64,000 bases of DNA from the NCBI RefSeq assembly GCF_044324875.1, contig NZ_CP172185.1. The stretch is one strand, 5' to 3'. Shown piece after piece: positions 28,546 to 46,150 of the stretch; the stretch's first letter is position 1, and every line of letters starts with the position of its first letter. Below the pieces are notes generated by a model. The model worked only from the letters and a program-made list of their open reading frames with translations, had not been told where the DNA came from and searched no databases. The translations under genes and the position numbers were made by a program. Origin of the DNA: Escherichia coli (GTDB taxonomy: Bacteria > Pseudomonadota > Gammaproteobacteria > Enterobacterales > Enterobacteriaceae).

Positions 28546-29487
28546 ATGGCGATGAACGTATTGCAATCACCTTCACGTCCAGGAGTTGGAAAGATATCCG
28601 GCTTTTTCTGGCGAAAACCAGGACTGGGGCTGTTTTTGTTGCTGCTTGGCCCGCTAATGTGGTTTGGCATTGTCTATTTCGGCTCGCTGCTAACGCTGTT
28701 ATGGCAGGGCTTTTATACTTTTGACGATTTCACCATGTCGGTAACGCCGGAACTGACGCTGGCGAATATCCGTGCGCTGTTTAATCCGGCGAATTACGAC
28801 ATCATTCTCCGCACGCTGATTATGGCTGTGGCAGTCACTATCGCCAGCGCCATTCTGGCTTTTCCAATGGCGTGGTATATGGCGCGCTATACCAGCGGGA
28901 AAATGAAAGCGTTTTTTTATATCGCGGTAATGTTGCCGATGTGGGCGAGCTACATTGTTAAAGCCTATGCCTGGACGTTATTGCTGGCGAAAGATGGTGT
29001 GGCGCAGTGGTTTTTACAACATCTGGGGCTGGAACCACTGCTGACAGCGTTCCTTACATTACCAGCGGTGGGCGGTAACACGCTGTCAACTTCCGGGCTG
29101 GGGCGCTTTCTGGTGTTTCTCTATATCTGGCTGCCGTTCATGATCCTGCCCGTGCAGGCGGCGCTTGAGCGTTTGCCGCCGTCATTGTTGCAGGCGTCGG
29201 CTGATCTTGGCGCACGTCCACGGCAAACCTTTCGCTATGTGGTACTGCCGCTGGCAATCCCGGGTATTGCCGCTGGCTCTATCTTTACCTTTTCACTCAC
29301 ACTGGGCGATTTTATCGTCCCGCAGCTGGTTGGCCCTCCAGGATATTTTATCGGCAATATGGTTTATTCCCAGCAGGGAGCGATTGGCAATATGCCGATG
29401 GCGGCGGCATTCACCCTGGTGCCGATTGTTCTCATCGCACTGTACCTGGCGTTCGTGAAACGTCTGGGAGCGTTCGATGCACTCTGA
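28546..29487 (+). CDS. ydcU: ABC transporter permease YdcU
   Basis: 313-aa polytopic permease. Confidence 0.9.
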
Positions 29488-30271
29488 ACGCGCACCGTTT
29501 TTCCTCAAACTGGCGGCCTGGGGCGGCGTGGTTTTCCTACATTTTCCCATTCTGATTATCGCCGCCTATGCGTTTAACACTGAAGATGCGGCGTTTAGTT
29601 TTCCACCGCAAGGCCTGACGCTGCGCTGGTTTAGCGTGGCAGCACAGCGCAGTGATATTCTTGAGGCTGTGACACTGTCACTTAAAGTGGCGGTGCTGGC
29701 GACATTAATTGCGCTGGTGTTAGGGACGCTGGCCGCTGCCGCGCTGTGGCGACGAGACTTTTTCGGCAAAAACGCCATTTCGCTGTTACTGCTGCTGCCC
29801 ATTGCGCTGCCGGGTATTGTCACTGGTCTGGCGCTATTAACCGCCTTTAAAACCATCGATCTGGAGCCGGGATTTTTCACCATCGTGGTCGGTCATGCGA
29901 CTTTTTGCGTAGTGGTGGTGTTTAACAATGTCATCGCCCGTTTTCGCCGCACCTCGTGCAGTCTGGTTGAGGCGTCAATGGATCTTGGGGCCAATGGCTG
30001 GCAAACCTTCCGCTACGTAGTGTTGCCGAATCTCAGTTCGGCGCTACTGGCAGGAGGAATGCTGGCGTTTGCCTTGTCGTTCGATGAAATCATCGTGACG
30101 ACCTTTACGGCAGGTCATGAACGAACGTTACCGTTGTGGTTGCTCAATCAGCTTGGGCGACCGCGTGATGTACCGGTAACCAACGTGGTGGCACTGCTGG
30201 TTATGTTGGTAACAACCTTGCCGATCCTGGGAGCCTGGTGGCTAACCCGCGAAGGCGACAATGGTCAATAA
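29477..30271 (+). CDS. ydcV: ABC transporter permease YdcV
   Basis: 264-aa polytopic permease overlapping ydcU stop. Confidence 0.9.
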
Positions 30272-30292
30272 CCACTGATACAGGAATATGCT

Positions 30293-31717
30293 ATGCAACA
30301 TAAGTTACTGATTAACGGAGAACTGGTTAGCGGCGAAGGGGAGAAACAGCCTGTCTATAATCCGGCAACGGGGGAAGTTTTACTGGAGATTGCCGAGGCA
30401 TCCGCAGAGCAGGTCGATGCCGCTGTTCGTGCAGCAGATGCAGCATTTGCCGAATGGGGGCAAACCACGCCGAAAGCGCGTGCGGAATGCCTGCTGAAAC
30501 TGGCGGATGTAATCGAAGAAAATGGTCAAGTTTTTGCCGAACTGGAGTCCCGTAACTGTGGCAAACCGCTGCATAGTGCGTTCAATGATGAAATTCCGGC
30601 GATTGTCGATGTCTTTCGCTTTTTCGCCGGAGCAGCTCGCTGCCTGAATGGTCTGGCGGCAGGTGAATATCTTGAAGGTCATACTTCGATGATCCGTCGC
30701 GATCCGTTGGGGGTCGTGGCTTCGATCGCTCCGTGGAATTATCCGCTGATGATGGCTGCGTGGAAACTGGCTCCGGCGCTGGCGGCAGGGAATTGCGTAG
30801 TGCTCAAACCATCAGAAATTACCCCGCTGACAGCGTTGAAGTTGGCAGAGCTGGCGAAAGATATCTTCCCAGCTGGCGTGATTAACGTGCTGTTTGGCAG
30901 AGGCAAAACGGTGGGCGATCCGCTGACCGGACATCCCAAAGTACGGATGGTGTCACTGACGGGCTCTATCGCCACTGGGGAACACATCATCAGCCATACC
31001 GCGCCGTCCATAAAGCTTACTCATATGGAACTTGGAGGCAAAGCGCCAGTGATAGTTTTTGATGATGCGGATATTGAAGCGGTGGTCGAAGGTGTACGTA
31101 CTTTTGGCTATTACAATGCCGGACAGGATTGTACTGCGGCTTGTCGGATCTACGCGCAAAAAGGTATTTACGATACGCTGGTGGAAAAACTCGGTGCTGC
31201 AGTGGCAACGTTAAAATCTGGTGCGCCGGATGACGAGTCTACGGAGCTTGGACCTTTAAGCTCACTGGCGCATCTCGATCGCGTCAGCAAAGCAGTAGAA
31301 GAGGCGAAAGCGACAGGGCACATCAAAGTGATCACTGGCGGTGAAAAGCGCAAGGGTAATGGCTATTACTATGCGCCGACGCTACTGGCTGGCGCATTAC
31401 AGGACGATGCCATCGTGCAAAAAGAGGTATTTGGTCCGGTAGTGAGTGTTACGCTCTTTGACAATGAAGAACAGGTGGTAAACTGGGCAAATGACAGCCA
31501 GTACGGACTTGCATCCTCGGTATGGACGAAAGATGTGGGCAGGGCGCATCGCGTCAGCGCGCGGCTGCAATATGGTTGTACCTGGGTCAATACCCATTTC
31601 ATGCTGGTAAGTGAAATGCCGCACGGTGGGCAGAAACTTTCTGGTTACGGCAAGGATATGTCACTTTATGGGCTGGAGGATTACACCGTCGTCCGCCACG
31701 TCATGGTTAAACATTAA
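30293..31717 (+). CDS. patD: gamma-aminobutyraldehyde dehydrogenase
   Basis: 474-aa aldehyde dehydrogenase recognised as PatD/YdcW. Confidence 0.95.
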
Positions 31718-31926
31718 GTTAGATGTTAGTGGCTGTTATAGGACGGCCACTATCGTTTTAGGTTCTGAGTTTAATGGCGGTTAAGTATTAGAATGATTAC
31801 ATTAATAACTAGCGTAAAAATTAGGCTAAATGTTTGATGGCGATTTTTCATCCTGTCACAGTTGATTAGCATAAGGCTTTAGAGTATCGTTATTAAACTA
31901 ATAATTTATAAGTAGAAGTATTAACA

Positions 31927-32736
31927 ATGAAAGTTCAATTGTACAAATTCACGGAAGATAAAAATAAAACCCTTACCTTCAGATGGACGAAAAAACACTT
32001 TGAGTTTTGTATGGATAATAAAATCTTTTTAAATCATAAGGGGAAGAAGTCGTATAAAGAAAGGAATTTATTTCTTTTCTCAAAAGGTGACAAGATAACA
32101 ATTGAAGATAATGTTATTGCTGAAGAATATTCAACAATGCCTGTAAAAAATTTCTCCAGTGTCGGCGCTTTTTCATTCCCGACCTGTCATTTTACAGGGA
32201 ATATACATATAGGTCGATTTTGTAGTATTGCATCAAATGTAAAAATAATGGGTGGAAATCATCCTTTGAATCGTTTTACTACTCACATGATGACTTATAA
32301 CGGTGAATTTGATAAGTTTGCTATGAGTGAGTTTGAACGTAGCTGGACATTGAAACCATTCATTACCAAACCTGAAAATCCGATTATAGGAAATGATGTC
32401 TGGATAGGAAATGATGTTGTATTGAAAGGTGGCATCGCAATAGGTGATGGTGCTGTTATTGCTGCCAATTCCGTTGTTACAAAAGATGTGCCCCCATATG
32501 CCATAGTTGCAGGAGTTCCTGCAAAAATAATCAGATTTAGATTTGATTCAAATATTATTGATGAATTGTTGAGAATAAAGTGGTGGAATTATAATTACTC
32601 AGATCTTCCGGATAATAACAAATGTGATGATATAAATTATTTTGTTGAAGAGATGAATCGATTGATATCAAATGGAAATATTCAAGAGATGGACTATAAA
32701 AAATTCAATCTTTCTGAGATATTTAGAGACCTATAA
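31927..32736 (+). CDS. xenobiotic-acetyltransferase-class (Vat/CatB-like) hexapeptide acetyltransferase, AT-rich
   Basis: IGNDVWIGNDVVL...GDGAVIAANSVVTKDVPPYAIVAGVPAKIIRFRF...IDELLRIKWWNY matches the Vat/CatB catalytic core and C-terminal KWW motif; composition unlike flanking genes. Confidence 0.7.
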   Translation: MKVQLYKFTEDKNKTLTFRWTKKHFEFCMDNKIFLNHKGKKSYKERNLFLFSKGDKITIEDNVIAEEYSTMPVKNFSSVGAFSFPTCHFTGNIHIGRFCSIASNVKIMGGNHPLNRFTTHMMTYNGEFDKFAMSEFERSWTLKPFITKPENPIIGNDVWIGNDVVLKGGIAIGDGAVIAANSVVTKDVPPYAIVAGVPAKIIRFRFDSNIIDELLRIKWWNYNYSDLPDNNKCDDINYFVEEMNRLISNGNIQEMDYKKFNLSEIFRDL

Positions 32737-33137
32737 TTATCTGTTCTGCATGATAAATGGGCAAGATAACCAGTGCGGGGTTTGCAATTTCAATGGGACA
32801 GCGTCATCAAGGAGATTGCAATCATCCTGCCATGCATATACTTTTCGCCATCTTTTTATATTTACTTTATTCCCTGAAAGTATAAAGCATTTATAGACTC
32901 CAGCGCGTCTAAAGTATTGATGATAGAAAAATGTGAAAACAAGGTTCCCTTTGAATCAGTAAGCTGTCTGTATAGACGACAGGGGGGGGATGTTTTCTAC
33001 TTATTTCAATGTAGATGTCAGCAAAAAGAAGTAAATATTAAGGATAATGTTGTAAGCCTGGAGAGTATGAGATGATCTTGCGTACTGTCAGAGCACTGAT
33101 TTCTCTGACAGTACGTGCTGCGTGCAAAATCACTACA

Positions 33138-33233
33138 TCAAATAAACCAGCCAAATCTCATAGAGATAAGAGTAAACAAACCAACAGCAGCAAAGACATT
33201 TATCAGTACTACAGTTCTACTGGAAACATTCAT
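33138..33233 (-). CDS. yncL: small membrane protein YncL (31 aa)
   Basis: hand translation of the minus strand: MNVSSRTVVLINVFAAVGLFTLISMRFGWFI. Confidence 0.8.
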   Translation of the reverse strand: MNVSSRTVVLINVFAAVGLFTLISMRFGWFI

Positions 33234-33427
33234 TTTTGCCACCTTTTATCATTGCCCCTATGTGTATAGTACGGGTTAAGAAAATCCGCAATAATGCTCA
33301 TTCTGAAGATGGATAAGGGCAAGTTGCTGTTTGATGATTTTTTCTCAAACCGGTTAAAAAACTTGATGTGCGTCAAAAAATGACGCATATTTGCGCGCGT
33401 TTTATTCATCTGGCTGGACGCCCGTAC

Positions 33428-33601
33428 ATGTCTCTCTATCAACACATGCTTGTTTTTTATGCGGTTATGGCAGTAATCGCATTTCTTATCACCTGGTTTC
33501 TTTCTCACGATAAGAAACGCATCCGTTTCTTAAGCGCCTTTCTGGTGGGGGCAACATGGCCGATGAGTTTCCCGGTGGCGCTGTTGTTTTCACTGTTTTA
33601 A
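33428..33601 (+). CDS. ortT: small membrane toxin OrtT/YdcX (57 aa)
   Basis: MSLYQHMLVFYAVMAVIAFL...; ORF track begins upstream at 33368. Confidence 0.8.
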   Translation: MSLYQHMLVFYAVMAVIAFLITWFLSHDKKRIRFLSAFLVGATWPMSFPVALLFSLF

Positions 33602-33686
33602 ATCTTACTCACTGGCTTGACGGCACCACGCAGACTTATATCATTTGGATGAATCGATAAATTTCACAAGTGGCTAAGGAGAAAGT

Positions 33687-33920
33687 ATGTCGCATCTGGA
33701 TGAAGTCATCGCGCGCGTGGATGCCGCGATTGAAGAGAGCGTCATTGCCCATATGAACGAATTATTAATCGCCCTGAGCGATGACGCGGAGTTAAGTCGG
33801 GAAGATCGCTATACCCAGCAGCAGCGTCTGCGCACAGCGATCGCCCATCACGGTCGCAAACATAAAGAAGATATGGAAGCGCGCCACGAACAGTTAACCA
33901 AAGGTGGCACCATCCTCTGA
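33687..33920 (+). CDS. ydcY: DUF2526 protein YdcY
   Basis: 77-aa ORF recognised as YdcY. Confidence 0.85.
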   Translation: MSHLDEVIARVDAAIEESVIAHMNELLIALSDDAELSREDRYTQQQRLRTAIAHHGRKHKEDMEARHEQLTKGGTIL

Positions 33921-34370
33921 TTAAAATGTGCGCCTGGCCACCAGCCAGGCACCAACCACAAGTAAAATTGCGCCACAAATTGGGCCGATCAACGCCCGTA
34001 GTGGTACGCCATGGCTGCGGAAGATATCCAGCACCAGACCGCCAATCAGCTGGCTGGCGACCAGTACCGCAATAGTTGTCGCCGCTCCCACATTCTGATA
34101 TCCGCTGATACTGGCGAAGACAAAAAACGATCCCAGCAAGCCAGGTATAAGTGTCCACCAGCGCACGTTGGACACCAGTTCGCCAAACCCCGCCATACCT
34201 TGTTTAAACCATAAAATAGAAACAAAGAGCACAATCCCCACCAGTGAGTTCAGCAACATGGCGATGAGAATGGTAGAGGAGGTCTGGGTGATGCGCACCA
34301 TCAGCGTGTTCTGGACTACCAGACCAATTCCGGCGGCAATCAAAAAAGCAAGGGTGAGCGACTGATTCAT
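33921..34370 (-). CDS. ydcZ: inner membrane protein YdcZ
   Basis: 149-aa polytopic membrane ORF. Confidence 0.85.
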   Translation of the reverse strand: MNQSLTLAFLIAAGIGLVVQNTLMVRITQTSSTILIAMLLNSLVGIVLFVSILWFKQGMAGFGELVSNVRWWTLIPGLLGSFFVFASISGYQNVGAATTIAVLVASQLIGGLVLDIFRSHGVPLRALIGPICGAILLVVGAWLVARRTF

Positions 34371-34885
34371 CCAATCGCGTCCGGTTCAGTGCGCTCGTCG
34401 AGTTGCAACTGCATAAATGTCAGATCCAGCCAACGACCAAATTTAGTGCCTACCTGCGGCATTTGTGCGGTGACGACAAATCCCAGCGTCTGGTGGAGAT
34501 GCAGCGAGGCCTGGTTTTGCGATTCGATCCCGGCGACCATGACATGCTTCCCGCAATCCCGCGCTTCATCAATCAATCGGCTTAACAATTTACGCCCCAG
34601 ACCTTTGCCCTGATGATCGGGATGGACATAAACCGAATGTTCCACGGTATGGCGAAAACCATCGAAACTACGCCAGTCGCCAAACGAGGCATATCCCGTC
34701 ACTACGCCATCTTCTTCGCTCACCAGCACCGGATAACCTGCTATGGTCCGCGCTTCAAACCAGGCAATGCGGTTATCAGCATCCACCGTTTGGTCATTCC
34801 AGATAGCCGCCGTATACAACACGGCGTGGTTATAAATTTCCGCAATGGCAGCACAGTCGGCTTTGCGGGCAAAACGGATGGACAT
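34367..34885 (-). CDS. mnaT: GNAT L-amino acid N-acyltransferase MnaT/YncA
   Basis: 172-aa GNAT ORF. Confidence 0.9.
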   Translation of the reverse strand: MSIRFARKADCAAIAEIYNHAVLYTAAIWNDQTVDADNRIAWFEARTIAGYPVLVSEEDGVVTGYASFGDWRSFDGFRHTVEHSVYVHPDHQGKGLGRKLLSRLIDEARDCGKHVMVAGIESQNQASLHLHQTLGFVVTAQMPQVGTKFGRWLDLTFMQLQLDERTEPDAIG

Positions 34886-35065
34886 GTTTGGCCTCGATTA
34901 AATAATGATGATGACGTTATCAATACTATCGAAAACAGCCCGAAGCAACGGATTCCTCGATGAAATTATTGCGTGTTGCAGAGGGGATGTGACGGCTGCA
35001 AACAAAACCATTCCTGCGAGCCTGCTACTATTGATGGATTCATGCCAAAAGCACAGGAGAGCATT

Positions 35066-36103
35066 ATGGGGCAACAAAAGCAGCGTAATCGACGTTGGGT
35101 TCTGGCCTCGCGTCCGCATGGCGCGCCGGTTCCGGAGAATTTCCGTCTTGAAGAAGATGATATCGCCACACCGGGTGAAGGACAGGTGTTACTGCGCACA
35201 GTTTATTTGTCACTGGACCCGTATATGCGTGGACGTATGAGCGATGAGCCATCTTATTCACCGCCGGTTGATATTGGCGGCGTGATGGTCGGCGGCACGG
35301 TGAGCCGTGTCGTGGAGTCGAATCATCCTGATTATCAGCCTGGCGACTGGGTGCTGGGCTACAGTGGATGGCAGGACTATGACATATCCAGTGGTGATGA
35401 TCTGGTGAAACTTGGCGATCATCCCCAAAATCCATCGTGGTCGCTGGGTGTGCTGGGGATGCCAGGCTTTACCGCTTATATGGGGCTGCTGGATATCGGT
35501 CAGCCCAAAGAGGGCGAAACATTGGTTGTTGCTGCGGCGACAGGTCCTGTGGGGGCGACGGTGGGTCAAATCGGCAAACTTAAAGGTTGCAGGGTGGTGG
35601 GGGTTGCCGGTGGCGCGGAAAAATGCCGCCATGCTACCGAGGTGTTAGGCTTCGATGTATGCCTTGATCACCACGCGGATGATTTTGCCGAACAACTGGC
35701 GAAAGCGTGCCCAAAAGGCGTTGATATCTATTATGAAAACGTTGGCGGTAAAGTATTTGATGCGGTGCTACCGTTACTTAATACATCTGCGCGCATTCCC
35801 GTCTGCGGCTTAGTGAGCAGCTATAACGCTACAGAGCTACCACCCGGCCCGGATCGATTACCTCTGTTGATGGCTACGGTGCTGAAAAAACGTATTCGCT
35901 TGCAAGGGTTTATTATCGCGCAGGATTATGGTCACCGCATCCATGAGTTTCAGAAGGAGATGGGGCAATGGGTGAAAGAGGATAAAATCCACTACCGCGA
36001 AGAAATTACTGACGGTTTAGAGAATGCGCCACAGACATTTATCGGCCTGCTGAAGGGTAAAAACTTCGGCAAAGTGGTGATCCGCGTGGCGGGTGATGAT
36101 TAA
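35066..36103 (+). CDS. curA: NADPH-dependent curcumin/dihydrocurcumin reductase
   Basis: 345-aa medium-chain reductase from MGQQKQRN; ORF track begins at 34973. Confidence 0.9.
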   Translation: MGQQKQRNRRWVLASRPHGAPVPENFRLEEDDIATPGEGQVLLRTVYLSLDPYMRGRMSDEPSYSPPVDIGGVMVGGTVSRVVESNHPDYQPGDWVLGYSGWQDYDISSGDDLVKLGDHPQNPSWSLGVLGMPGFTAYMGLLDIGQPKEGETLVVAAATGPVGATVGQIGKLKGCRVVGVAGGAEKCRHATEVLGFDVCLDHHADDFAEQLAKACPKGVDIYYENVGGKVFDAVLPLLNTSARIPVCGLVSSYNATELPPGPDRLPLLMATVLKKRIRLQGFIIAQDYGHRIHEFQKEMGQWVKEDKIHYREEITDGLENAPQTFIGLLKGKNFGKVVIRVAGDD

Positions 36104-36301
36104 AGATACGACGGCGGCGTAAAGCCGCCATAAAAATCTAGGCAAAAATCTTATTTCCAGCTTTAATTAACTTACCACTTCTCTGTTCTGTAGCTAATAA
36201 CAATAAAGGTGAGTGGATAATGATTATTCAGCTTCATACGCCAGGTAAACGACTTCTGTTGTGCTGGCAGAGTTGGAACGAAAACGCCTAAAGGAAATAA
36301 C

Positions 36302-36967
36302 ATGCCTGGAACGGAAAAAATACCGCATATCAGTTTAACTATGAAGGTTGAGAACGACCTGAAACATCAGCTTAGTATTGGCGCACTAAAACCTGGCGCA
36401 CGCCTGATTACTAAAAATCTGGCGGAGCAATTAGGTATGAGTATTACACCCGTGCGTGAAGCATTATTACGTCTGGTTTCGGTGAATGCGCTTTCTGTCG
36501 CACCTGCGCAAGCATTTACAGTTCCGGAAGTGGGGAAACGTCAATTAGACGAAATCAATCGGATCCGCTACGAACTGGAATTAATGGCAGTTGCTCTGGC
36601 TGTTGAAAACCTCACCCCGCAAGACCTGGCGGAACTCCAGGAATTGCTCGAGAAATTACAGCAGGCGCAAGAAAAGGGCGACATGGAACAAATCATTAAT
36701 GCGAACAGGCTATTTCGTTTAGCGGTTTATAATCGCTCAAATATGCCCATCCTGTGTGAAATGATTGAGCAACTGTGGGTCAGAATGGGACCTGGTTTAC
36801 ATTATCTCTATGAAGCGATTAATCCAGCGGAATTACGGGAGCGTATAGAAAACTATCATCTATTACTCGCCGCGTTAAAAGCAAAAGACAAAGAGGGATG
36901 CAGACATTGTCTTGCTGAAATTATGCATCAAAATATTTCTATTTTATATCAGCAATACAATCGTTAA
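36302..36967 (+). CDS. mcbR: GntR-family regulator McbR/YncC
   Basis: 221-aa ORF with GntR HTH and FCD domain. Confidence 0.9.
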   Translation: MPGTEKIPHISLTMKVENDLKHQLSIGALKPGARLITKNLAEQLGMSITPVREALLRLVSVNALSVAPAQAFTVPEVGKRQLDEINRIRYELELMAVALAVENLTPQDLAELQELLEKLQQAQEKGDMEQIINANRLFRLAVYNRSNMPILCEMIEQLWVRMGPGLHYLYEAINPAELRERIENYHLLLAALKAKDKEGCRHCLAEIMHQNISILYQQYNR

Positions 36968-36971
36968 ATAA

Positions 36972-36995
36972 AATGCCCGGCAAATACCGGGCATC
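36972..36995. terminator. bidirectional terminator between convergent mcbR and yncD
   Basis: hairpin gcccggcaaataccgggc. Confidence 0.6.
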
Positions 36996-37002
36996 AAGGT
37001 AA

Positions 37003-39105
37003 TTACTCAAATCGCCACGCAATATTCATGCCGACACCATAATTTCGCCCGGGTGCAGGTTCGTAATATCGCCCGTTTGACTCATTGACAATGACAGAAC
37101 CAACGTATTCTTTATCGAATAAATTATCGACACGACCAAATAAATCCACAGTTAAATTGTGGTAATTGTATTTATACCCGGTGAATAAGCCGACGAGAGT
37201 ATAAGACGGCGCTTTGGCCGTATTTTCATCATCTGCCATAATATCGCCCATGTAACGCGCTTCCGTACCTGCATACCAGCCATCTTCCGGTACATAACCT
37301 ATCGACGCAAAGCCCATATTACGGGCGATCCCTGGCATCCGGTTACCGTTACAATCCTGTTCATTGCACACATTGCTGCGATAGGTCGCATCGAGCCAGG
37401 TCCAGGACGCTTTTACACGAAAATCTCCCGCGAAACGTTGATCCCATGCCAGTTCAGCACCTTGACGACGGGTCTTTCCGGCATTTTTGTAAGTCGTACG
37501 CCCACCGCTACTGCTATCGACAACAATTTCATCATCGGTGTCGGTCTGGAACAATGCGAGACTAAGCAGCCCATCACCAATACGCGTTTTACTGCCGATT
37601 TCAATGGTATCGTTGGTGGATGGTTTTAAACCAAAGTTCATACCGCTTTGCCCATCAGCGCGATAAGAGAGCTCATTAATCGTCGGCGTTTCAAAACCAC
37701 GCCCGGCTGCCAGATAGATATTCCAGGCATCGGTCATTGCATATTTTAACGAACCGGCAGGTAGCCATATGTGATAACTGGCATCACCGCTGTCATCACC
37801 GTTACCCGGAGTAACGTAATGGTCGTTGGAATCAAACCACACGGAGCTGTAGCGCACGCCAGCATCCAGCGACAGTTTTTCGCTCAGCTGCCACTGCGTC
37901 TGTAAATAGGGATCGACGTTCCACATCAGATTGCGTTCGTCGCGGCGCAACTCACCTTTTTGCCCGTATTCCGGCATGCCGCTATTCAGGCGGAAGTTAT
38001 TGTAGCCCTTGCGGTTTTCACTCATGTTTTCGTAGTTCAGGCCGGTAGTGAACGTGAGCGGAACGCCCAGTTCACCACGGTGTGTCCAGCGGCTGTCTAT
38101 CCCCTGGTAATGGCGTTGCAGAGTAATCACGCCGCCCGCATGTGACGGATTAAGTTGGGGAGCCATCGGGATTGACTGGTACTGGGTCGTTTCTCGCTCC
38201 CCGGCATACATCATCACACTCATCTCATCCCGCGAACTCAGGCTACGCTCATAGCGCAGCCCAGCCTGAGTTTGCTTGATGGTTTTTCGCGTGTAGTACT
38301 GTTCAGCGCGTGGCGCTTGTTGCGGATTCGCCTTCCATTCTGCTTCGGTTAGCCCACCTGGGTCATCTGCTTTGATATCCACACTATTGAAAATCAGGCT
38401 TAATTTGCTGGCGTCATCAATGCGTACGCCCAGTTTGGCATTGGCTAAATTTTTCTGTGCGCCACTATGATCACGATAGCCGTGGGTCGTAAAGCGCGTG
38501 GTTGAGACGGTGTAATCGACATCGCCAGGCTGTGTGCCGTCGCCCGTTGCGCCCGTTGCTTTCAGCCCATAGCGCCAGCTGCCAAAACTGCCGTAGTAAC
38601 TACTGGCTTCAATGGTTGGTGGCTGTTGTCCGGTCTGGGTGATGACATTCATTACACCGCCAGACGCGTTGCCATACAGAGCAGAGAAGGGGCCGCGCAG
38701 CACTTCCACATTTTGTACACTGCTTAAATCGATGTTGGATGTTTGCCCTTGTCCGTCGGGCATGGTGGCGGGAATACCGTCCACATACAGGCGAATACCG
38801 CGAATTCCGTAAGTGGAGCGGGAGCCAAATCCGCGAATCGACAGCTGTAAATCTTGCGCATAGTTCTGCCGGTTTTGTACCTGCAAACCAGGCACGCTGG
38901 TCAGTGATTCGGACAAGTTAATGCGCGGTGTTGCCAGGCGCATCTCCTCGCCATCCACCACGCTTACTGCTGCTGGGGTATCCAGTTCTGAAACCACCTG
39001 CGGTGCGGCACTGACAATCATAGTCTGTTCATCAGCGGCAAAAACAACGGGGGAAAGGACAAGCAGTGCGGGCAAAACGGTCTGTCGGACGGAAAAAATC
39101 TTCAT
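37003..39105 (-). CDS. yncD: TonB-dependent outer membrane receptor YncD
   Basis: 700-aa ORF with signal peptide, plug and beta-barrel, C-terminal aromatic residue. Confidence 0.9.
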   Translation of the reverse strand: MKIFSVRQTVLPALLVLSPVVFAADEQTMIVSAAPQVVSELDTPAAVSVVDGEEMRLATPRINLSESLTSVPGLQVQNRQNYAQDLQLSIRGFGSRSTYGIRGIRLYVDGIPATMPDGQGQTSNIDLSSVQNVEVLRGPFSALYGNASGGVMNVITQTGQQPPTIEASSYYGSFGSWRYGLKATGATGDGTQPGDVDYTVSTTRFTTHGYRDHSGAQKNLANAKLGVRIDDASKLSLIFNSVDIKADDPGGLTEAEWKANPQQAPRAEQYYTRKTIKQTQAGLRYERSLSSRDEMSVMMYAGERETTQYQSIPMAPQLNPSHAGGVITLQRHYQGIDSRWTHRGELGVPLTFTTGLNYENMSENRKGYNNFRLNSGMPEYGQKGELRRDERNLMWNVDPYLQTQWQLSEKLSLDAGVRYSSVWFDSNDHYVTPGNGDDSGDASYHIWLPAGSLKYAMTDAWNIYLAAGRGFETPTINELSYRADGQSGMNFGLKPSTNDTIEIGSKTRIGDGLLSLALFQTDTDDEIVVDSSSGGRTTYKNAGKTRRQGAELAWDQRFAGDFRVKASWTWLDATYRSNVCNEQDCNGNRMPGIARNMGFASIGYVPEDGWYAGTEARYMGDIMADDENTAKAPSYTLVGLFTGYKYNYHNLTVDLFGRVDNLFDKEYVGSVIVNESNGRYYEPAPGRNYGVGMNIAWRFE

Positions 39106-39346
39106 GAAAAAAGCCAGGTTAAGAATGGGAAAGCGCCGCTATGGTAATAAAATTGTAAATTTATGGAAAACGAAACGGCACGATACGTTAAGTAATTGAG
39201 AAAATTGTAGTCGTAACGGCAAGAAATGCTCCACATTTGAGAAAATAATGATTACCATTCCCATTTATAACAAGAGCGTAACGATGATTACGCTTAGCGA
39301 AGCATTGTGAAGCAGCAAAAATATCGGTTCATCAAAGGGAGTCGTC

Positions 39347-40408
39347 ATGCATTTACGTCATCTGTTTTCATCGCGCCTGCGTGGTTCATTACTGTTAGGT
39401 TCATTGCTTGTTGCTTCATCATTCAGTACGCAGGCCGCAGAAGAAATGCTGCGTAAAGCGGTAGGTAAAGGTGCCTACGAAATGGCTTATAGCCAGCAAG
39501 AAAACGCGCTGTGGCTCGCCACTTCGCAAAGCCGCAAACTGGATAAAGGCGGCGTGGTTTATCGTCTTGATCCGGTCACTCTGGAAGTGACGCAGGCGAT
39601 CCATAACGATCTCAAGCCGTTTGGTGCCACCATCAATAACACGACTCAGACGTTGTGGTTTGGTAACACTGTAAACAGCGCGGTCACGGCGATAGATGCC
39701 AAAACGGGCGAAGTGAAAGGCCGTCTGGTGCTGGATGATCGTAAGCGCACGGAAGAGGTGCGTCCGCTGCAACCGCGTGAGCTGGTGGCAGACGATGCCA
39801 CGAACACCGTTTACATCAGTGGTATTGGTAAAGAGAGCGTGATTTGGGTCGTTGATGGCGAGAATATCAAACTGAAAACCGCCATCCAGAACACCGGTAA
39901 AATGAGTACCGGTTTAGCGCTGGATAGCAAAGGCAAACGTCTTTACACCACTAACGCTGACGGTGAATTGATTACCATCGACACCGCCGACAATAAAATC
40001 CTCAGCCGTAAAAAGCTGCTGGATGACGGCAAAGAGCACTTCTTTATCAACATCAGCCTTGATACCGCCAGGCAGCGTGCATTTATCACCGACTCTAAAG
40101 CGGCAGAAGTGTTAGTGGTCGATACCCGTAATGGCAATATTCTGGCGAAGGTTGCGGCACCGGAATCACTGGCTGTGCTGTTTAACCCCGCGCGTAATGA
40201 AGCCTACGTAACGCATCGTCAGGCAGGTAAAGTCAGTGTGATTGACGCGAAAAGCTATAAAGTGGTGAAAACGTTCGATACGCCGACTCATCCGAACAGC
40301 CTGGCGCTGTCTGCCGATGGTAAAACGCTGTATGTCAGTGTGAAACAAAAATCCACTAAACAGCAGGAAGCTACCCAGCCGGATGATGTGATTCGTATTG
40401 CGCTGTAA
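39347..40408 (+). CDS. yncE: secreted beta-propeller protein YncE
   Basis: 353-aa ORF with signal peptide. Confidence 0.9.
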   Translation: MHLRHLFSSRLRGSLLLGSLLVASSFSTQAAEEMLRKAVGKGAYEMAYSQQENALWLATSQSRKLDKGGVVYRLDPVTLEVTQAIHNDLKPFGATINNTTQTLWFGNTVNSAVTAIDAKTGEVKGRLVLDDRKRTEEVRPLQPRELVADDATNTVYISGIGKESVIWVVDGENIKLKTAIQNTGKMSTGLALDSKGKRLYTTNADGELITIDTADNKILSRKKLLDDGKEHFFINISLDTARQRAFITDSKAAEVLVVDTRNGNILAKVAAPESLAVLFNPARNEAYVTHRQAGKVSVIDAKSYKVVKTFDTPTHPNSLALSADGKTLYVSVKQKSTKQQEATQPDDVIRIAL

Positions 40409-40491
40409 TAGATATGGCGAGGGTGAAAACGGAGAGACTTGCCTGACTTTTATCACGCCGTATCCGGCACCTTCGTCAGTAATTTGAATTT

Positions 40492-40510
40492 GCCCGGCAC
40501 GTAGCCGGGC
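40492..40510. terminator. stem-loop between convergent yncE and ansP
   Basis: hairpin gcccggcacgtagccgggc. Confidence 0.5.
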
Positions 40511-40520
40511 AATTTTGCAA

Positions 40521-42020
40521 TTAACTCGCCGTTTCAGGTTTAAACACAATTTCCTGTTGTTCTTCATCTTCCTCGACGACTGGCGCAGTGCTGTGAATTT
40601 CAGCAACGCGTTTGCGCACACCAAACCAGCCTATAACCAGCAGAATACCGATAATCGGCAGCGCCGCGATGGTATAAGTCCCGTTCGGGTAATCGAACGC
40701 CATCAGCACCAGGACGCTCAGCAAAAACAGTAATGTCAGCCAGGAAGTGAAGGGCGCGCCAGGCAGTTTAAAACTGACATCCGCTGCTTTGCCTTCTTTA
40801 ATCGCTTTACGCAGGCGCATCTGGCACACGATGATAAACGCCCATGAAGCGATGATTCCCAGCGACGCGAAGTTCAACACAATCTCAAATACGCGCGACG
40901 GCACCAGATAGTTGAGGAATACGCCGACGACATACACAACCAGTGTCGCCAGAATCCCGGCATACGGCACATGCTGACGACTCATTTTCGCCATAAAACT
41001 CGGTGCGGAACCGCCCATCGCCATCGAGCGCAGAATACGTCCGGTGCAGTACAGACCTGAGTTCAGGCTGGAGAGGGCAGCGGTCAGCACCACAATGTTC
41101 ATAATGCTGCCGATGTACGGCACACCCAGTTTAGAGAAAAACGTCACGAACGGACTTTGCCCCGCCTGATACGCGCTCCACGGCAATAACATAACCAGCA
41201 ACACCACGGAGCCGACGTAAAACAGGCCAATACGCCAAATCACACTGTTAATCGCTTTAGGCACCATGGTCTGCGGATCTTTACATTCTCCGGCAGCTGT
41301 ACCCACCATTTCAATGGAGGCAAAAGCAAACACTACGCCCTGAATCAACACCAGCGCAGGCAGCAAACCGTGGGGGAAGAAGCCGCCGTTATCGGTAATT
41401 AAATGAAAGCCAGTGGTGTTGCCATCCAGCGGCTGGCCGCTACCGAGGAACACTGTACCCACGACCAAAAAGGTCACAATGGCGAGCACTTTAATAAGCG
41501 CAAACCAGAACTCCATCTCCGCAAACCATTTCACACCGATCATATTCATGGTGCCAACGATGGTCAGCGCAGCGAGCGCAAAGACCCACTGCGGCACGCC
41601 GCCAAACGCACCCCAGTAATGCATATACAGAGCGACGGCGGTGATATCGACAATTCCCGTCATCGCCCAGTTGATGAAGTACATCCAGCCTGCAACGTAA
41701 GCGGCTTTCTCTCCTAAAAACTCACGGGCATAAGAGACAAAACTGCCACTGGAAGGGCGGTGTAACACCAGCTCACCCAATGCACGCAGAATAAAAAATG
41801 AAAACAGGCCGCAGATTAAATAGACCAGTGCCAGTGCTGGCCCCGCCATTTGCAGTCGGGCTCCTGCACCTAAAAACAAGCCGGTGCCAATCGCGCCGCC
41901 AATGGCGATCATCTGCACCTGGCGATTGCCCATCGCTTTGTGATACCCCTCTTCGTGGGCATTAAGCCAGCGGCGTTTCGCGGCGTGTTGATCTGAAGTG
42001 TCGGTGTCGTGTTTACTCAT
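40521..42020 (-). CDS. ansP: L-asparagine permease
   Basis: 499-aa APC-family transporter from MSKHDTD; ORF track extends to 42071. Confidence 0.9.
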   Translation of the reverse strand: MSKHDTDTSDQHAAKRRWLNAHEEGYHKAMGNRQVQMIAIGGAIGTGLFLGAGARLQMAGPALALVYLICGLFSFFILRALGELVLHRPSSGSFVSYAREFLGEKAAYVAGWMYFINWAMTGIVDITAVALYMHYWGAFGGVPQWVFALAALTIVGTMNMIGVKWFAEMEFWFALIKVLAIVTFLVVGTVFLGSGQPLDGNTTGFHLITDNGGFFPHGLLPALVLIQGVVFAFASIEMVGTAAGECKDPQTMVPKAINSVIWRIGLFYVGSVVLLVMLLPWSAYQAGQSPFVTFFSKLGVPYIGSIMNIVVLTAALSSLNSGLYCTGRILRSMAMGGSAPSFMAKMSRQHVPYAGILATLVVYVVGVFLNYLVPSRVFEIVLNFASLGIIASWAFIIVCQMRLRKAIKEGKAADVSFKLPGAPFTSWLTLLFLLSVLVLMAFDYPNGTYTIAALPIIGILLVIGWFGVRKRVAEIHSTAPVVEEDEEQQEIVFKPETAS

Positions 42021-42284
42021 TGCTCTCCCTGATTGCTTTAATGAAAAAGTCATATAAGTTGCCATGAACAATGTTTATTCATCCTGGCGATGATAGTTAT
42101 CACCATTATTCTTTATGGGTATAAAACTATCGGCGCAGCATCCTACCCGTTATCGATAAACGATGCAAAACATCCCCTTACAATCCTGAAGGGAATTTAT
42201 ACAACTGACAAAAAATGACCATCCTTTTGCAGGTTAACCTGTGTGCTGTCCTACACTTAATCTTTAAAGGATTGTGAGGGGCAT

Positions 42285-42902
42285 ATGATTAAGTTGTATG
42301 GCGTACCCGGATGGGGCTCTACAATCAGTGAGCTGATGCTAACACTGGCTGATATCCCTTATCAGTTCGTTGGTGTCAGTGGTTTTGACCACGAGGGAAC
42401 TTCACGCGAGTTATTGAAAACCCTGAACCCGTTGTGTCAGGTTCCGACACTGGCGCTGGAAAATGACGAGATTATGACGGAGACAGCGGCGATTGCATTG
42501 ATGGTTCTCGATCGTCGCCCGGACCTTGCGCCACCGGTTGGGCGCGCCGAACGTCAGCAGTTTCAACGGCTATTGGTCTGGCTGGTTGCTAATGTCTATC
42601 CAGCGTTTACTTTCGCCGATTACCCTGAGCGTTGGGCATCTGACGCACCTGAACAGTTAAAGAAGAATGTAATTGAATATCGCAAATCGCTTTATATCTG
42701 GCTGAATTCACAATTGACCGCTGAACCTTATGCCTTTGGTGAGCAACTAACGCTGGTGGACTGTTATCTCTGCACCATGCGCACATGGGGGCCGGGGCAT
42801 GAATGGTTTCAGGATAATGCCACGAATATCAGTGCGATTGCTGATGCTGTATGCCAGATACCAAAGTTACAAGAAGTACTAAAAAAGAATGCCATTATTT
42901 AG
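42285..42902 (+). CDS. yncG: glutathione S-transferase homologue YncG
   Basis: 205-aa GST-fold ORF. Confidence 0.9.
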   Translation: MIKLYGVPGWGSTISELMLTLADIPYQFVGVSGFDHEGTSRELLKTLNPLCQVPTLALENDEIMTETAAIALMVLDRRPDLAPPVGRAERQQFQRLLVWLVANVYPAFTFADYPERWASDAPEQLKKNVIEYRKSLYIWLNSQLTAEPYAFGEQLTLVDCYLCTMRTWGPGHEWFQDNATNISAIADAVCQIPKLQEVLKKNAII

Positions 42903-43441
42903 CAATAATGCCGGAGATTAATGTTAATAAATCACCGGCAAAGTTAACTGGACGTCCATTTGTTTGCTATGAATGGTAATTGAAGATAGTACAACTATTT
43001 ATATGATTGATGAAATTTCGTTTTTTATATTAAATATCAATTTGATTTAATCTGAAAATAAAACATCTTTTCGCATATAGAGAAACATGTCGATATGATA
43101 GTGCAGTGCAGATCATGTCATCAGGGTAGGGCGGTAGCGTATTTAATCAGGGAAAGATTACGCAATGCTGCTTTTTTGTATTGAACGATTCGCATTTTAT
43201 GTTTAAAAATTGCGATATTCCTTATTTCCTGAAGCTGTTTTTATTGCTTATACATGATCAAATACTCCTTACATAATTAAGGGGAACAAAATGGAACTTA
43301 ATACACGCCAACAATTTGTATTACTTAAATAGACCAGTGAAGGTACGTATCAGAATATCCGGTGAAGTGATTAATATTTCGTTGAATATTTCTCCGGATT
43401 TTTGAAACCTGCTGCTGTAGAAATTCTGAACAGGAGGAATT

Positions 43442-43726
43442 ATGCCCTTAGCCGCCAAACTTACCGACAAAGGCACCCAGCACGACGGTTATTACGAGAC
43501 CGTCATCATCGCCGGGTCATCCACCGTTTTTATCGATGGTCTCCCCGCAGCCCGCCAGGGAGATCCGCTGACGCCGCATGCTAAACCGAAGCATCCCCCT
43601 CATCCCCGTAAAATCGCCAGAGGTTCTTCAACCGTCTTTATTGACGGTCTGCCCGCCGCCAGAAGCGGTGATGCTGTTGACTGCGGCGGCGTGGTTATCG
43701 GTGGCGGTACGGTAAATATAGGCTGA
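43442..43726 (+). CDS. PAAR-domain protein (type VI secretion spike tip)
   Basis: 94-aa ORF with two literal PAAR motifs in a duplicated segment (SSTVFIDGLPAARQGD / SSTVFIDGLPAARSGD); strong RBS aggagg. Confidence 0.8.
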   Translation: MPLAAKLTDKGTQHDGYYETVIIAGSSTVFIDGLPAARQGDPLTPHAKPKHPPHPRKIARGSSTVFIDGLPAARSGDAVDCGGVVIGGGTVNIG

Positions 43727-43744
43727 TATGTCTGAGAGGTATTT

Positions 43745-46150
43745 ATGTCCTTAAAAGGTCTTCACTTTACGCTGGAGGTTGACGGCCAGGAGCCGGACAC
43801 CTTTGCAGTGGTGCATTTCAGGTTAATCCAGAACCAGTCTTATCCGTTTGTGATGAGTGTGGATGTTGCCAGCGACTCTTTTATGCAGACGGCGGAGATG
43901 CTGCTGGAGAAGAAGGCGACGCTGACCATCTGGCAGGGCGTCATCCCGCTGCGTTATGTCACCGGCGTGGTGGCGGGTTTTGGCATGCAGGAGAACAATG
44001 GCTGGCAGATGCGTTACCACCTGCGTATCCAGCCGCCGTTATGGCGGTGCGGGCTGCGGCAGAACTTCCGTATCTTCCAGCAGCAGGATATCCGGACGAT
44101 ATCGGCCACGTTACTGAACGAGAACGGCGTCACGGAGTGGACGCCGCTGTTTTATGAGGACCATCCGGCGCGGGAGTTCTGTGTCCAGTACGGGGAGTCG
44201 GACCTGGCGTTTCTGTCCCGGCTGTGGGCGGAGGAGGGTCTTTTCTTCTTTGAGCGGTTTGCGGCGGACAGTCCGGAGCAGAAGCTGACGCTGTGCGACG
44301 ATGTGGCGGGGCTGTCACAGGCGGGGGAGTTTCCGTTTAACCCGGACACATCGGCAGGTGCGGAGACGGAGTGTGTCAGTATGTTCCGTTATGAGGCGCA
44401 TGTCCGCCCGTCATCGGTGCAGAGCCAGGATTACACCTTTAAGGTGCCGGACTGGCCGGGGATGTATGAGCAGCAGGGTGAGAACCTGAACGGACAGCTG
44501 GAGCAGTATGAGATATTTGATTATCCGGGAAGGTACAAGGATGAACAGCACGGCAAGGATTTCACGCTGTACCAGATGGAGAGCCTGCGCAGTGATGCGG
44601 AAAAGGCCACAGGGCAGAGTAATTCGCCGAAGCTGTGGCCGGGAACGCGGTTTATGCTGACGGGGCATCCGCAGAAGATGCTGAACCGTGAATGGCAGGT
44701 GGTACAGAGCATACTGTCAGGAAACCAGCCGCAGGCGCTGCACGGCAGCCAGGGAAAGGGAACCACGCTGGGCAATCAGTTAGAGGTGATACCGGCGGAC
44801 CGGACGTGGCGTCCACGGCTGCAAAACAAACCGAAGGTGGACGGGCCACAGAGCGCCATCGTCACCGGTCCTGCGGGAGAGGAAATCTTCTGCGATGAAC
44901 ATGGACGGGTACGGGTGAAGTTCCACTGGGACCGTTATCACGGGATGACGGAGGCGAGTTCATGCTGGGTGCGGGTATCGCAGGCGTGGGCGGGGCCGGG
45001 GTTCGGTAACCTGGCGATACCACGGGTGGGTCAGGAGGTGATAGTGGACTTCCTGAACGGCGACCCGGACCAGCCGATAATCATGGGGCGGACGTACCAT
45101 GAGGACAACCGTTCGCCGGGCGACCTGCCGGGAACGAAGACGCAGATGACCATCCGGTCAAAAACCTATAAAGGAAGCGGATTTAACGAGCTGCGGTTTG
45201 AAGACGCCACCAGTAATGAGCAGGTGTATATCCATGCCCAGAAGAACATGGATACGGAGGTGCTCAACGACCGGACAACGGATGTGAAACATGACCATAC
45301 GGAAACCATCGGGAACGACCAGAAGATAACGGTGGTGAAGGGGCAGACGGTTCAGGTCGGGACCAGAAAAGAAGGGGGCCACGACCAGAGTATCACGGTG
45401 GCGAACGACCGGTGCATCACGGTACGTAATGACCAGACGCTGCAGGTGACGAATGACCGGACGGTGAGCGTGAGTAATGATGACGGCCTGTACGTCAGAA
45501 ATGACCGTAAAGTGACGGTGGAAGGGAAGCAGGAGCATAAGACGACGGGGAACCATATCAGTCTGGTGGAGGGAAAGCACAGCCTGGTGGTGAAGGGGAA
45601 CCTGGCGAGGAAGGTGAGTGGCGCGCTGGGGATAAAGGTGGACGGGGATATCGTGCTGGAGAGCAGCAGCCGGATAAGCCTGAAGGTGAGTGGCTCGTTT
45701 GTGGTCATCCATTCAGGGGGCGTGGACATCGTCGGGCCGAAAATCAATCTCAATAGCGGCGGTAGTCCGGGGACGCCGGTGCCGGCGCTGCAACCGGCGG
45801 TGCTGAAGACACTGGGGGATGAGAAGAGTGGTGATGGCAGTGATTCCGGAGAAGAAAATGAAGACTCTGGAGGGAACTGCGTGACCGGAAGTGGTGGTGA
45901 TGATCGAGGTGACGATGAGGATGAACCTGAAAAATATACTCTCCAGTTCCATTTTACAGACGATGACGGGATACCGTATTCAGAAACCCGCTACATTGCC
46001 TTCTTTGAGGATGGCACGCAGACCCGCGGAGAAACGGATGAAGAGGGGTATACAGAGCGTTTTTTTGTATCTAGCAAACATGAAATTAAAGTGAAGTTGT
46101 TATTTGCGAATGATGATTTTCTCTCAATGGAAGGACACTATGGACGATAA
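43745..46150 (+). CDS. vgrG: type VI secretion spike protein VgrG with acidic C-terminal extension
   Basis: 801-aa ORF; gp27/gp5-like N-terminal region, repeat-rich beta-helix, then Asp/Glu-rich tail. Confidence 0.9.
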   Translation: MSLKGLHFTLEVDGQEPDTFAVVHFRLIQNQSYPFVMSVDVASDSFMQTAEMLLEKKATLTIWQGVIPLRYVTGVVAGFGMQENNGWQMRYHLRIQPPLWRCGLRQNFRIFQQQDIRTISATLLNENGVTEWTPLFYEDHPAREFCVQYGESDLAFLSRLWAEEGLFFFERFAADSPEQKLTLCDDVAGLSQAGEFPFNPDTSAGAETECVSMFRYEAHVRPSSVQSQDYTFKVPDWPGMYEQQGENLNGQLEQYEIFDYPGRYKDEQHGKDFTLYQMESLRSDAEKATGQSNSPKLWPGTRFMLTGHPQKMLNREWQVVQSILSGNQPQALHGSQGKGTTLGNQLEVIPADRTWRPRLQNKPKVDGPQSAIVTGPAGEEIFCDEHGRVRVKFHWDRYHGMTEASSCWVRVSQAWAGPGFGNLAIPRVGQEVIVDFLNGDPDQPIIMGRTYHEDNRSPGDLPGTKTQMTIRSKTYKGSGFNELRFEDATSNEQVYIHAQKNMDTEVLNDRTTDVKHDHTETIGNDQKITVVKGQTVQVGTRKEGGHDQSITVANDRCITVRNDQTLQVTNDRTVSVSNDDGLYVRNDRKVTVEGKQEHKTTGNHISLVEGKHSLVVKGNLARKVSGALGIKVDGDIVLESSSRISLKVSGSFVVIHSGGVDIVGPKINLNSGGSPGTPVPALQPAVLKTLGDEKSGDGSDSGEENEDSGGNCVTGSGGDDRGDDEDEPEKYTLQFHFTDDDGIPYSETRYIAFFEDGTQTRGETDEEGYTERFFVSSKHEIKVKLLFANDDFLSMEGHYGR

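Follow-up and report, generated by a model that had tools for sequence, protein, structure and literature searches.

In a 64,000-nucleotide stretch of Escherichia coli DNA (contig NZ_CP172185.1; this whole stretch is called the window below), an intact open reading frame (ORF) of 269 amino acids with an ATG start lies on the plus strand at 31927-32736, within an AT-rich islet between patD and yncL. The gene carries the RefSeq name "CatB-related O-acetyltransferase". Sequence comparisons and a predicted fold confirm its product as a member of the xenobiotic acetyltransferase (XAT) class of hexapeptide, left-handed beta-helix (LbH) acetyltransferases, and the same sequence comparisons place it outside the Vat, CatB and ApmA enzymes. 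We believe that the likeliest substrate is a sugar or glycan-like acceptor, or another small hydroxylated one, and not streptogramin A or chloramphenicol, a reading to which we would give an even chance. A literature search found no study dealing with the acetyltransferase gene between patD and yncL of E. coli; the gene is accessory and had been annotated before, yet is uncharacterized.

The patD-yncL islet and its distribution

The islet is preceded by ydcV and patD (30293-31717) and followed by yncL (33138-33233, minus strand), ortT, ydcY, ydcZ, mnaT and curA, and these neighbors agree with annotated E. coli chromosomes. The G+C fraction (GC) of the ORF is 0.322 and its GC at third codon positions (GC3) is 0.278, compared with a GC3 of 0.52 in patD and a GC of 0.50-0.57 (about 0.52) in the flanks. 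The start Met is the same Met that is found in homologues from other genera. In a comparison with complete E. coli genomes the islet was present in 1148-1158 of 5426 (∼21%), always at the same site, with SE11 and strains of serotypes O103:H2 and O111:H8 among the carriers. In the remaining ∼79% the patD-ortT stretch measures 777-778 bp instead of 2101 bp. An earlier note made from the letters alone had placed the ORF between patD and yncL, had described its composition as very different from that of the flanking core genes, and had proposed horizontal acquisition, with presence or absence at this site across E. coli as a check. The ORF and its composition are as described there, and horizontal acquisition is consistent with its low GC, with its patchy presence across E. 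coli just given and with the differing sites that the gene occupies in other genera.

Only 2-4 amino acid differences separate the proteins of E. coli lineages whose flanks are 2-3% apart. Over its whole length the islet shows 97.2-98% identity to that of other E. coli, and the 12-kb flank is similar at 97.4%. In some strains the acetyltransferase gene is split by IS1A (NZ_CM184353.1, NZ_CP080139.1), and the protein database includes truncated E. coli versions (P0023, P0026, P0028). Recent exchange of the islet between lineages was considered on the basis of synonymous divergence (dS), which is 0.026-0.039 in the ORF versus 0.23 in patD, and was rejected because the former represents just 4-6 synonymous changes, patD is unusually divergent, and islet and flank have the similar identities given above. 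Relative to strain E7-1N7, patD differs at 76 of 1425 nucleotides, 68 of them at third codon positions (dS 0.23). Over 2-12 kb, window positions 29400-45300 reach at most 97.4-98.3% identity to any of the 5426 complete genomes, so the lineage of the window is not closely represented among them. According to the annotation of matching records, the right flank (33300-45300) carries curA, mcbR, yncE, ansP, pqqU and a type VI secretion tssI/vgrG gene, and the vgrG-like part occurs in multiple copies per genome (median of 5 places).

A search of a plasmid collection did not find the gene on genuine Enterobacterales plasmids, and a phage collection contained no close relative of the window protein. 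The closest gene copy, with 99.3% amino acid identity, is carried by NZ_CP141089.1, a 4.94-Mb replicon of E. coli KE47 that is filed as "plasmid unnamed1" and is evidently a chromosome. A scan of species-representative genomes for the C-terminal motif returned mostly distant XATs, with no other Escherichia species among the matches listed.

As listed in Table 1, the islet is bounded by imperfect direct repeats that are identical at 10 of 11 positions, and islet-free genomes retain a single copy. This arrangement is compatible with either insertion at short homology or deletion between repeats. Immediately to the right of the junction, at 33049-33061, 8 of 13 positions distinguish haplotypes that have the islet from those that lack it (GTTGTAAGCCTGG versus ATTGCAGATCGTA), far over the 2-3% background, which suggests that the breakpoints are old or complex. 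The islet has neither terminal inverted repeats nor a transposase, is not found on genuine enterobacterial plasmids and has no close phage matches, and we therefore rejected a mobile element (insertion sequence, miniature inverted-repeat transposable element or integron cassette). A search for a structured RNA or riboswitch in the islet gave zero Rfam matches at E≤1. A decayed second gene in the ∼300-bp tail was likewise rejected, as tblastx and blastn comparisons with the neighborhoods of homologues gave no similarity. A G8 tract at 32982-32989 in this tail reads GGAGGGGG in strain E7-1N7. Finally, a functional link to the ydcSTUV-patD operon was discarded because a hairpin lies between the genes and no homologue from another genus is near patD.

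Table 1. Positions of features at the patD-yncL locus, in window coordinates.
Feature	Position	Strand	Basis or remark
Long-form XAT-class hexapeptide acetyltransferase, 269 amino acids (His112, W159, KWW 218-220)	31927..32736	+	sequence, profile and model comparisons
AT-rich accessory islet, 1324 bp, GC 0.333, missing from K-12-like genomes	31719..33042	.	comparison with K-12-like locus
Left copy of 11-bp imperfect direct repeat, TAAACATTAAG, spanning the patD stop codon	31708..31718	.	sequence reading
Right copy of direct repeat, TAAATATTAAG	33032..33042	.	sequence reading
Putative terminator-like hairpin, 11 pairs, tail TCGTTTTAGG, right after patD, inside islet	31727..31752	+	consensus scan only
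Upstream region alignable with the Citrobacter orthologue	31846..31926	+	DNA homology begins at 31846
Weak sigma-70-like site, TTTAGA, 16 nt, AATAAT	31878-31905	+	scan; such sites no commoner than in shuffled sequence
Non-coding islet tail	32737..33031	.	1-bp indels between strains; no gene remnant recognizable
Perfect 13-bp inverted repeat between islet and yncL; core sequence, also in islet-free genomes	33081..33115	.	

Class and architecture of the encoded protein

Pfam Hexapep matches residues 151-186 of the window protein (E 1.8e-9), and the KWW motif at 218-220 is embedded in IKWWNY (217-222) in the C-terminal helical region. His112, located in the sequence GGNHPLN, pairs in alignments with the catalytic His82 of VatD and with the corresponding His of CatB. 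In an alignment of 38 homologues, His112, Trp159, Trp219 and Trp220 are invariant. An AlphaFold2 monomer model computed from this alignment has a mean predicted local distance difference test score (pLDDT) of 91.5, and the predicted fold is an LbH that agrees with the Vat and CatB structures. The LbH hexapeptide repeat, the inserted loop with its His and the C-terminal (K)WW region, all features of the XAT class, were thus each found. The best NCBIfam and PDB matches are all XAT-class (Vat, CatB, ApmA). However, the curated cut-offs are missed: the top NCBIfam match, TIGR03308, scores 131.6 bits (cut-off 201.65), Vat NF000311 124.6 bits (cut-off 300, with the individual Vat(A-I) models likewise far below theirs), CatB NF000490 106.6 bits (cut-off 350) and ApmA NF000084 83 bits (cut-off 550).

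The window protein is 60 residues longer than VatD in the alignment. Its first ∼60 residues cannot be aligned with Vat or CatB and stand in for 27 residues of VatD, a net gain of ∼33, with the remaining extra length located in the catalytic loop (∼5-6 residues) and at the C-terminus (∼22 residues). These extensions are not peculiar to the window gene and are common to a large homologous family. The long-form subfamily, as we call it, comprises proteins of ∼255-280 amino acids that have an additional segment at the N-terminus and end in a helical extension of ∼40 residues. The enterobacterial clade keeps the long form together with the motif FRW(T/K)xxHxE(F/Y)CxDNxIFL, and the form is still discernible in Gram-positive and Campylobacter relatives. 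We found no solved structure for this branch. The hexapeptide core, the KWW motif and the class that the earlier note had read from the sequence are borne out by Pfam, the alignments and the predicted fold, and the alignment to Vat and CatB that it recommended identifies the catalytic His. Its description of an unusual N-terminal extension of roughly 60-80 residues needs revision; the unalignable segment is real, but the net gain is about half that length and is widely shared.

Full-length homologues are encoded by Citrobacter (78% identity), Cedecea (71%), Enterobacter sp. (70%), Providencia (55%), Apirhabdus and Kluyvera (52-53%), and Pectobacterium, Dickeya and Rahnella (46-51%). The chromosomal site of the gene differs from genus to genus, and in all hosts examined gene GC is below flank GC. 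DNA similarity to Citrobacter is restricted to the gene and ∼80 bp upstream of it. Comparison with the Citrobacter orthologue gives a nonsynonymous divergence (dN) of 0.128 and a dS of ∼1.7, and the low dN/dS of ∼0.07 indicates that the protein is under purifying selection. A gene for a methyl-accepting chemotaxis protein precedes the homologue in Cedecea and Rahnella, and in Cedecea (L007 10300-11906) a colicin and colicin-immunity pair lies ∼1.5 kb downstream of it. A search of a library with 1.84 billion cluster representatives gave 696 matching clusters at E≤1e-30, among which at least 150, all uncharacterized, score above 144 bits and are thus nearer than Vat or CatB (∼100 bits).

Relatives in glycan loci and candidate acceptors

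The gene for a Campylobacter jejuni homologue (P0271, 276 amino acids, 1560 member sequences) immediately follows cgtA, a cst-II-type gene, neuB, neuC and neuA and precedes a family 2 glycosyltransferase (GT2) gene and waaF. This is the orf11 position of class A/B lipooligosaccharide (LOS) loci, and from this position we infer that P0271 is Orf11 itself. In Campylobacter lari, the gene for the homologue P0108 ends a cst-I/neuB/neuC/neuA operon. BLASTP aligns the window protein with P0271 at 39% identity over 212 amino acids (E 2e-45), covering window residues 66-269 and including the C-terminal extension. With phmmer the Campylobacter clade scores 137-166 bits, the Enterococcus homologue 167 bits and the Mammaliicoccus homologue 179 bits, compared with 104 bits for VatD and 98 bits for CatB. 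The phmmer alignments span residues 37-266 (C. lari), 6-259 (Mammaliicoccus) and 12-258 (Enterococcus), and the homology to the long-form "CatB-related" subfamily is therefore near full-length. Orf11 is an experimentally characterized sialate O-acetyltransferase (Houliston et al. 2006, cited in PMC8319020 Table 1, PMC2174954 and PMC3513307), and as these three papers summarize it, the enzyme uses acetyl-CoA to acetylate O-9 of terminal sialic acid bound to oligosaccharides. It is the sole characterized member of the long-form subfamily that we found.

Further homologues are associated with glycan genes. The Enterococcus homologue lies amid cell-wall glycopolymer genes (GT4, an ABC transporter, glycerol-3-phosphate dehydrogenase, an NTP-transferase and LytR-CpsA-Psr). 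The Providencia homologue, which belongs to the same 100%-bootstrap clade as the E. coli gene, is transcribed divergently from a GT52 (sialyltransferase-family) gene in AT-rich prophage cargo. In Providencia rettgeri (L094 3785-8893, L095 3785-9392) this cargo follows tail-fiber and lysis genes, and the neighbors of the homologue are the GT52 gene, an ORF of 250 amino acids of unknown function and either DarT/NADAR or a reverse transcriptase + AAA defense pair. Genes for glycosyltransferases, epimerases or NeuABC lie no more than 6 kb away in 24-27 of 80 distant XAT loci, a crude count made with no control. Fusions among distant relatives (to a GT8 domain, to ATP-grasp ligases and as tandem XATs) give mixed hints.

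Based on these comparisons we propose that the window gene encodes a soluble O-acetyltransferase of the XAT (LbH_XAT) class that depends on acetyl-CoA and is presumably a homotrimer with active sites at the subunit interfaces. A long loop of its LbH bears His112 as the general base, and the acetylated group would be a hydroxyl of a sugar or glycan-like acceptor. The gene would have entered next to the 3' end of patD as a single-gene islet of low GC, and purifying selection retains it in about one fifth of E. coli genomes. The trimer, O- rather than N-acetylation and the sugar acceptor are all things that we infer, and it is the kinship with Orf11, together with the members in polysaccharide, LOS and teichoic-type loci, that makes a sugar the most probable acceptor.

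Several observations weigh against this proposal. In E. coli, Citrobacter, Cedecea, Rahnella and Apirhabdus the gene stands by itself, its neighbors are unrelated and no glycan locus is close by; the homologues seen within sialic-acid or glycan loci were just those of Campylobacter, Enterococcus and Providencia, and not the E. coli gene or those of the four other enterobacterial genera. Identity to the Orf11-position protein is only ∼39%, a level too low for carrying over substrate specificity, and over 140 core columns the Campylobacter clade, at 44-48% identity to the window protein, is just a little nearer than VatD at 42.6%. In a neighbor-joining tree the enterobacterial clade has 100% bootstrap support and Vat and CatB fall elsewhere, but the deep nodes, with bootstrap values of 5-43%, are unresolved. 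Because of this, the closeness to a sialate O-acetyltransferase rests on architecture and full-length scores. The promoter-like site is weak, expression of the gene in E. coli is putative, and some strains carry the IS1-disrupted or truncated copies mentioned above. In addition, all structurally characterized XAT-class enzymes act, to our knowledge, on small-molecule antibiotics, which keeps a xenobiotic acceptor plausible.

A detoxifying acetyltransferase with a substrate beyond the Vat, CatB and ApmA spectra, so that the islet protects against some natural product, is accordingly the alternative that deserves most attention, although we consider it somewhat unlikely. Besides class membership, it draws on the genomic setting, as the gene is solitary, low in GC and differently placed from genus to genus, which is also true of many resistance or detoxification genes that stand alone, and on ApmA as an example of the scaffold taking on new antibiotic substrates when its N-terminus changes (PMC7885111). 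However, that the gene was not found on genuine plasmids or in phages of Enterobacterales argues against such a role, as do the glycan-related nature of the nearest characterized relative and of several homologue contexts and the lack of any nameable candidate substrate. The earlier note had raised a cryptic antibiotic-modifying enzyme of the Vat/CatB kind, acting on streptogramin A or chloramphenicol. The best solved-structure matches are indeed VatD (E 3e-29), VatA and CatB, and the window protein keeps the catalytic His and the C-terminal coils that bind acetyl-CoA, but the cut-offs are missed by wide margins, at least 150 uncharacterized clusters are nearer, and, the His apart, the residues that would contact these antibiotics are replaced or have no counterpart (see below). 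Full-length similarity and architecture are nearer to the Orf11-position protein and to homologues in glycan loci. E. coli is also intrinsically insensitive to streptogramins. We therefore regard such an activity as very improbable and prefer the other option in that note, an acetyltransferase for sugars or xenobiotics.

The islet could also be a silent leftover of horizontal transfer without a current role, possibly silenced by H-NS and heading for loss. Its very AT-rich DNA, its absence from most genomes, the IS1 insertions, the truncated products and the lack of a strong promoter would all be expected of such a leftover. Yet the ORF is intact in ∼1150 genomes, amino acid divergence within E. 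coli is low and the dN/dS versus Citrobacter is well under 1, and we think this explanation improbable. A more specific version of the sugar-acceptor proposal is that the enterobacterial clade encodes a sialate/ulosonic-acid-type O-acetyltransferase modifying a surface glycan, such as the lipopolysaccharide core, 3-deoxy-D-manno-oct-2-ulosonic acid (Kdo) or scavenged sialic acid. This is a speculative extension with a small chance of being correct. If true, it would imply altered antigenicity and altered recognition by phages or host lectins, and this one gene would form a module for surface modification that is independent of serotype and passes from genus to genus, at times as prophage cargo as in Providencia.

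In practice, resistome surveys should not score the gene as one that confers resistance to streptogramins or chloramphenicol. The Prokaryotic Genome Annotation Pipeline (PGAP) gives the "CatB-related O-acetyltransferase" label to both the window protein and the C. jejuni Orf11-position protein, so the label is uninformative with regard to antibiotics. The gene also marks a large long-form branch of the XAT class that is almost wholly uncharacterized. If the acceptor is a surface sugar, about one fifth of E. coli, including major non-O157 enterohemorrhagic serotypes, would carry a portable modifier of cell-surface chemistry.

Comparison with Vat, CatB, ApmA and the Campylobacter protein

VatD (1KHR) and VatA (4HUS) share class and fold with the window protein, and VatD is ∼34% identical to it over 170 amino acids, with the pairs His82/His112 and Trp121/Trp159 kept. 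Vat enzymes do not have the 60 extra residues that the window protein carries at both termini and in the loop. Vat, CatB and ApmA share a Tyr (VatD Tyr37, VatA Tyr42, CatB Tyr30, ApmA Tyr102) that forms a hydrogen bond with the substrate or oxyanion (PMC7885111, PMC8096840). This residue is replaced by Thr70 in the window protein, at a position that is variable across the family. The streptogramin contacts of VatD include Pro90, Asn92 and Leu93 (bioRxiv 10.1101/2025.01.31.635826), which lie opposite His120, Met122 and Thr123 in a loop where the alignment is less certain.

In CatB (PaXAT 2XAT, 6MFK, CatB8 8J40), chloramphenicol is bound by Pro8, Gly11, Tyr30, Ser32 and His79 (PMC8096840), and of this set the His alone is kept in the window protein. 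Tyr30 and Ser32 correspond to Thr70 and Pro72, such that the CatB sequence YSYYS reads YSTMP in the window protein, and the N-terminal segment with Pro8 and Gly11 has no alignable counterpart. ApmA (7JM0), an aminocyclitol N-acetyltransferase of 274 amino acids with extra N-terminal residues (PMC7885111), resembles the window protein in class, in length and in having additional N-terminal residues. However, the core alone aligns structurally (∼173-183 of 272-275 residues), and Tyr102 is without an equivalent. Structural alignment gave no sign of a relation between the N-terminal regions, and a domain of the ApmA type (residues 1-82) was not found in the window protein.

Unlike the E. coli gene, which is solitary and has no sialic-acid synthesis or transfer genes nearby, the gene for the Campylobacter Orf11-position protein closes a cst/neuBCA sialylation operon. 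The first ∼35-65 residues of the two proteins are poorly conserved, and the tree, with its poorly supported deep nodes, does not recover the two as sister groups. Both nevertheless have the N-terminal segment, the EEY motif, the HP(L/M)(N/D)R loop, KWW and the ∼40-residue helical C-terminal extension, and both are missing the Tyr of Vat and CatB, with EEYCAF in the Campylobacter protein and EEYSTM in the window protein.

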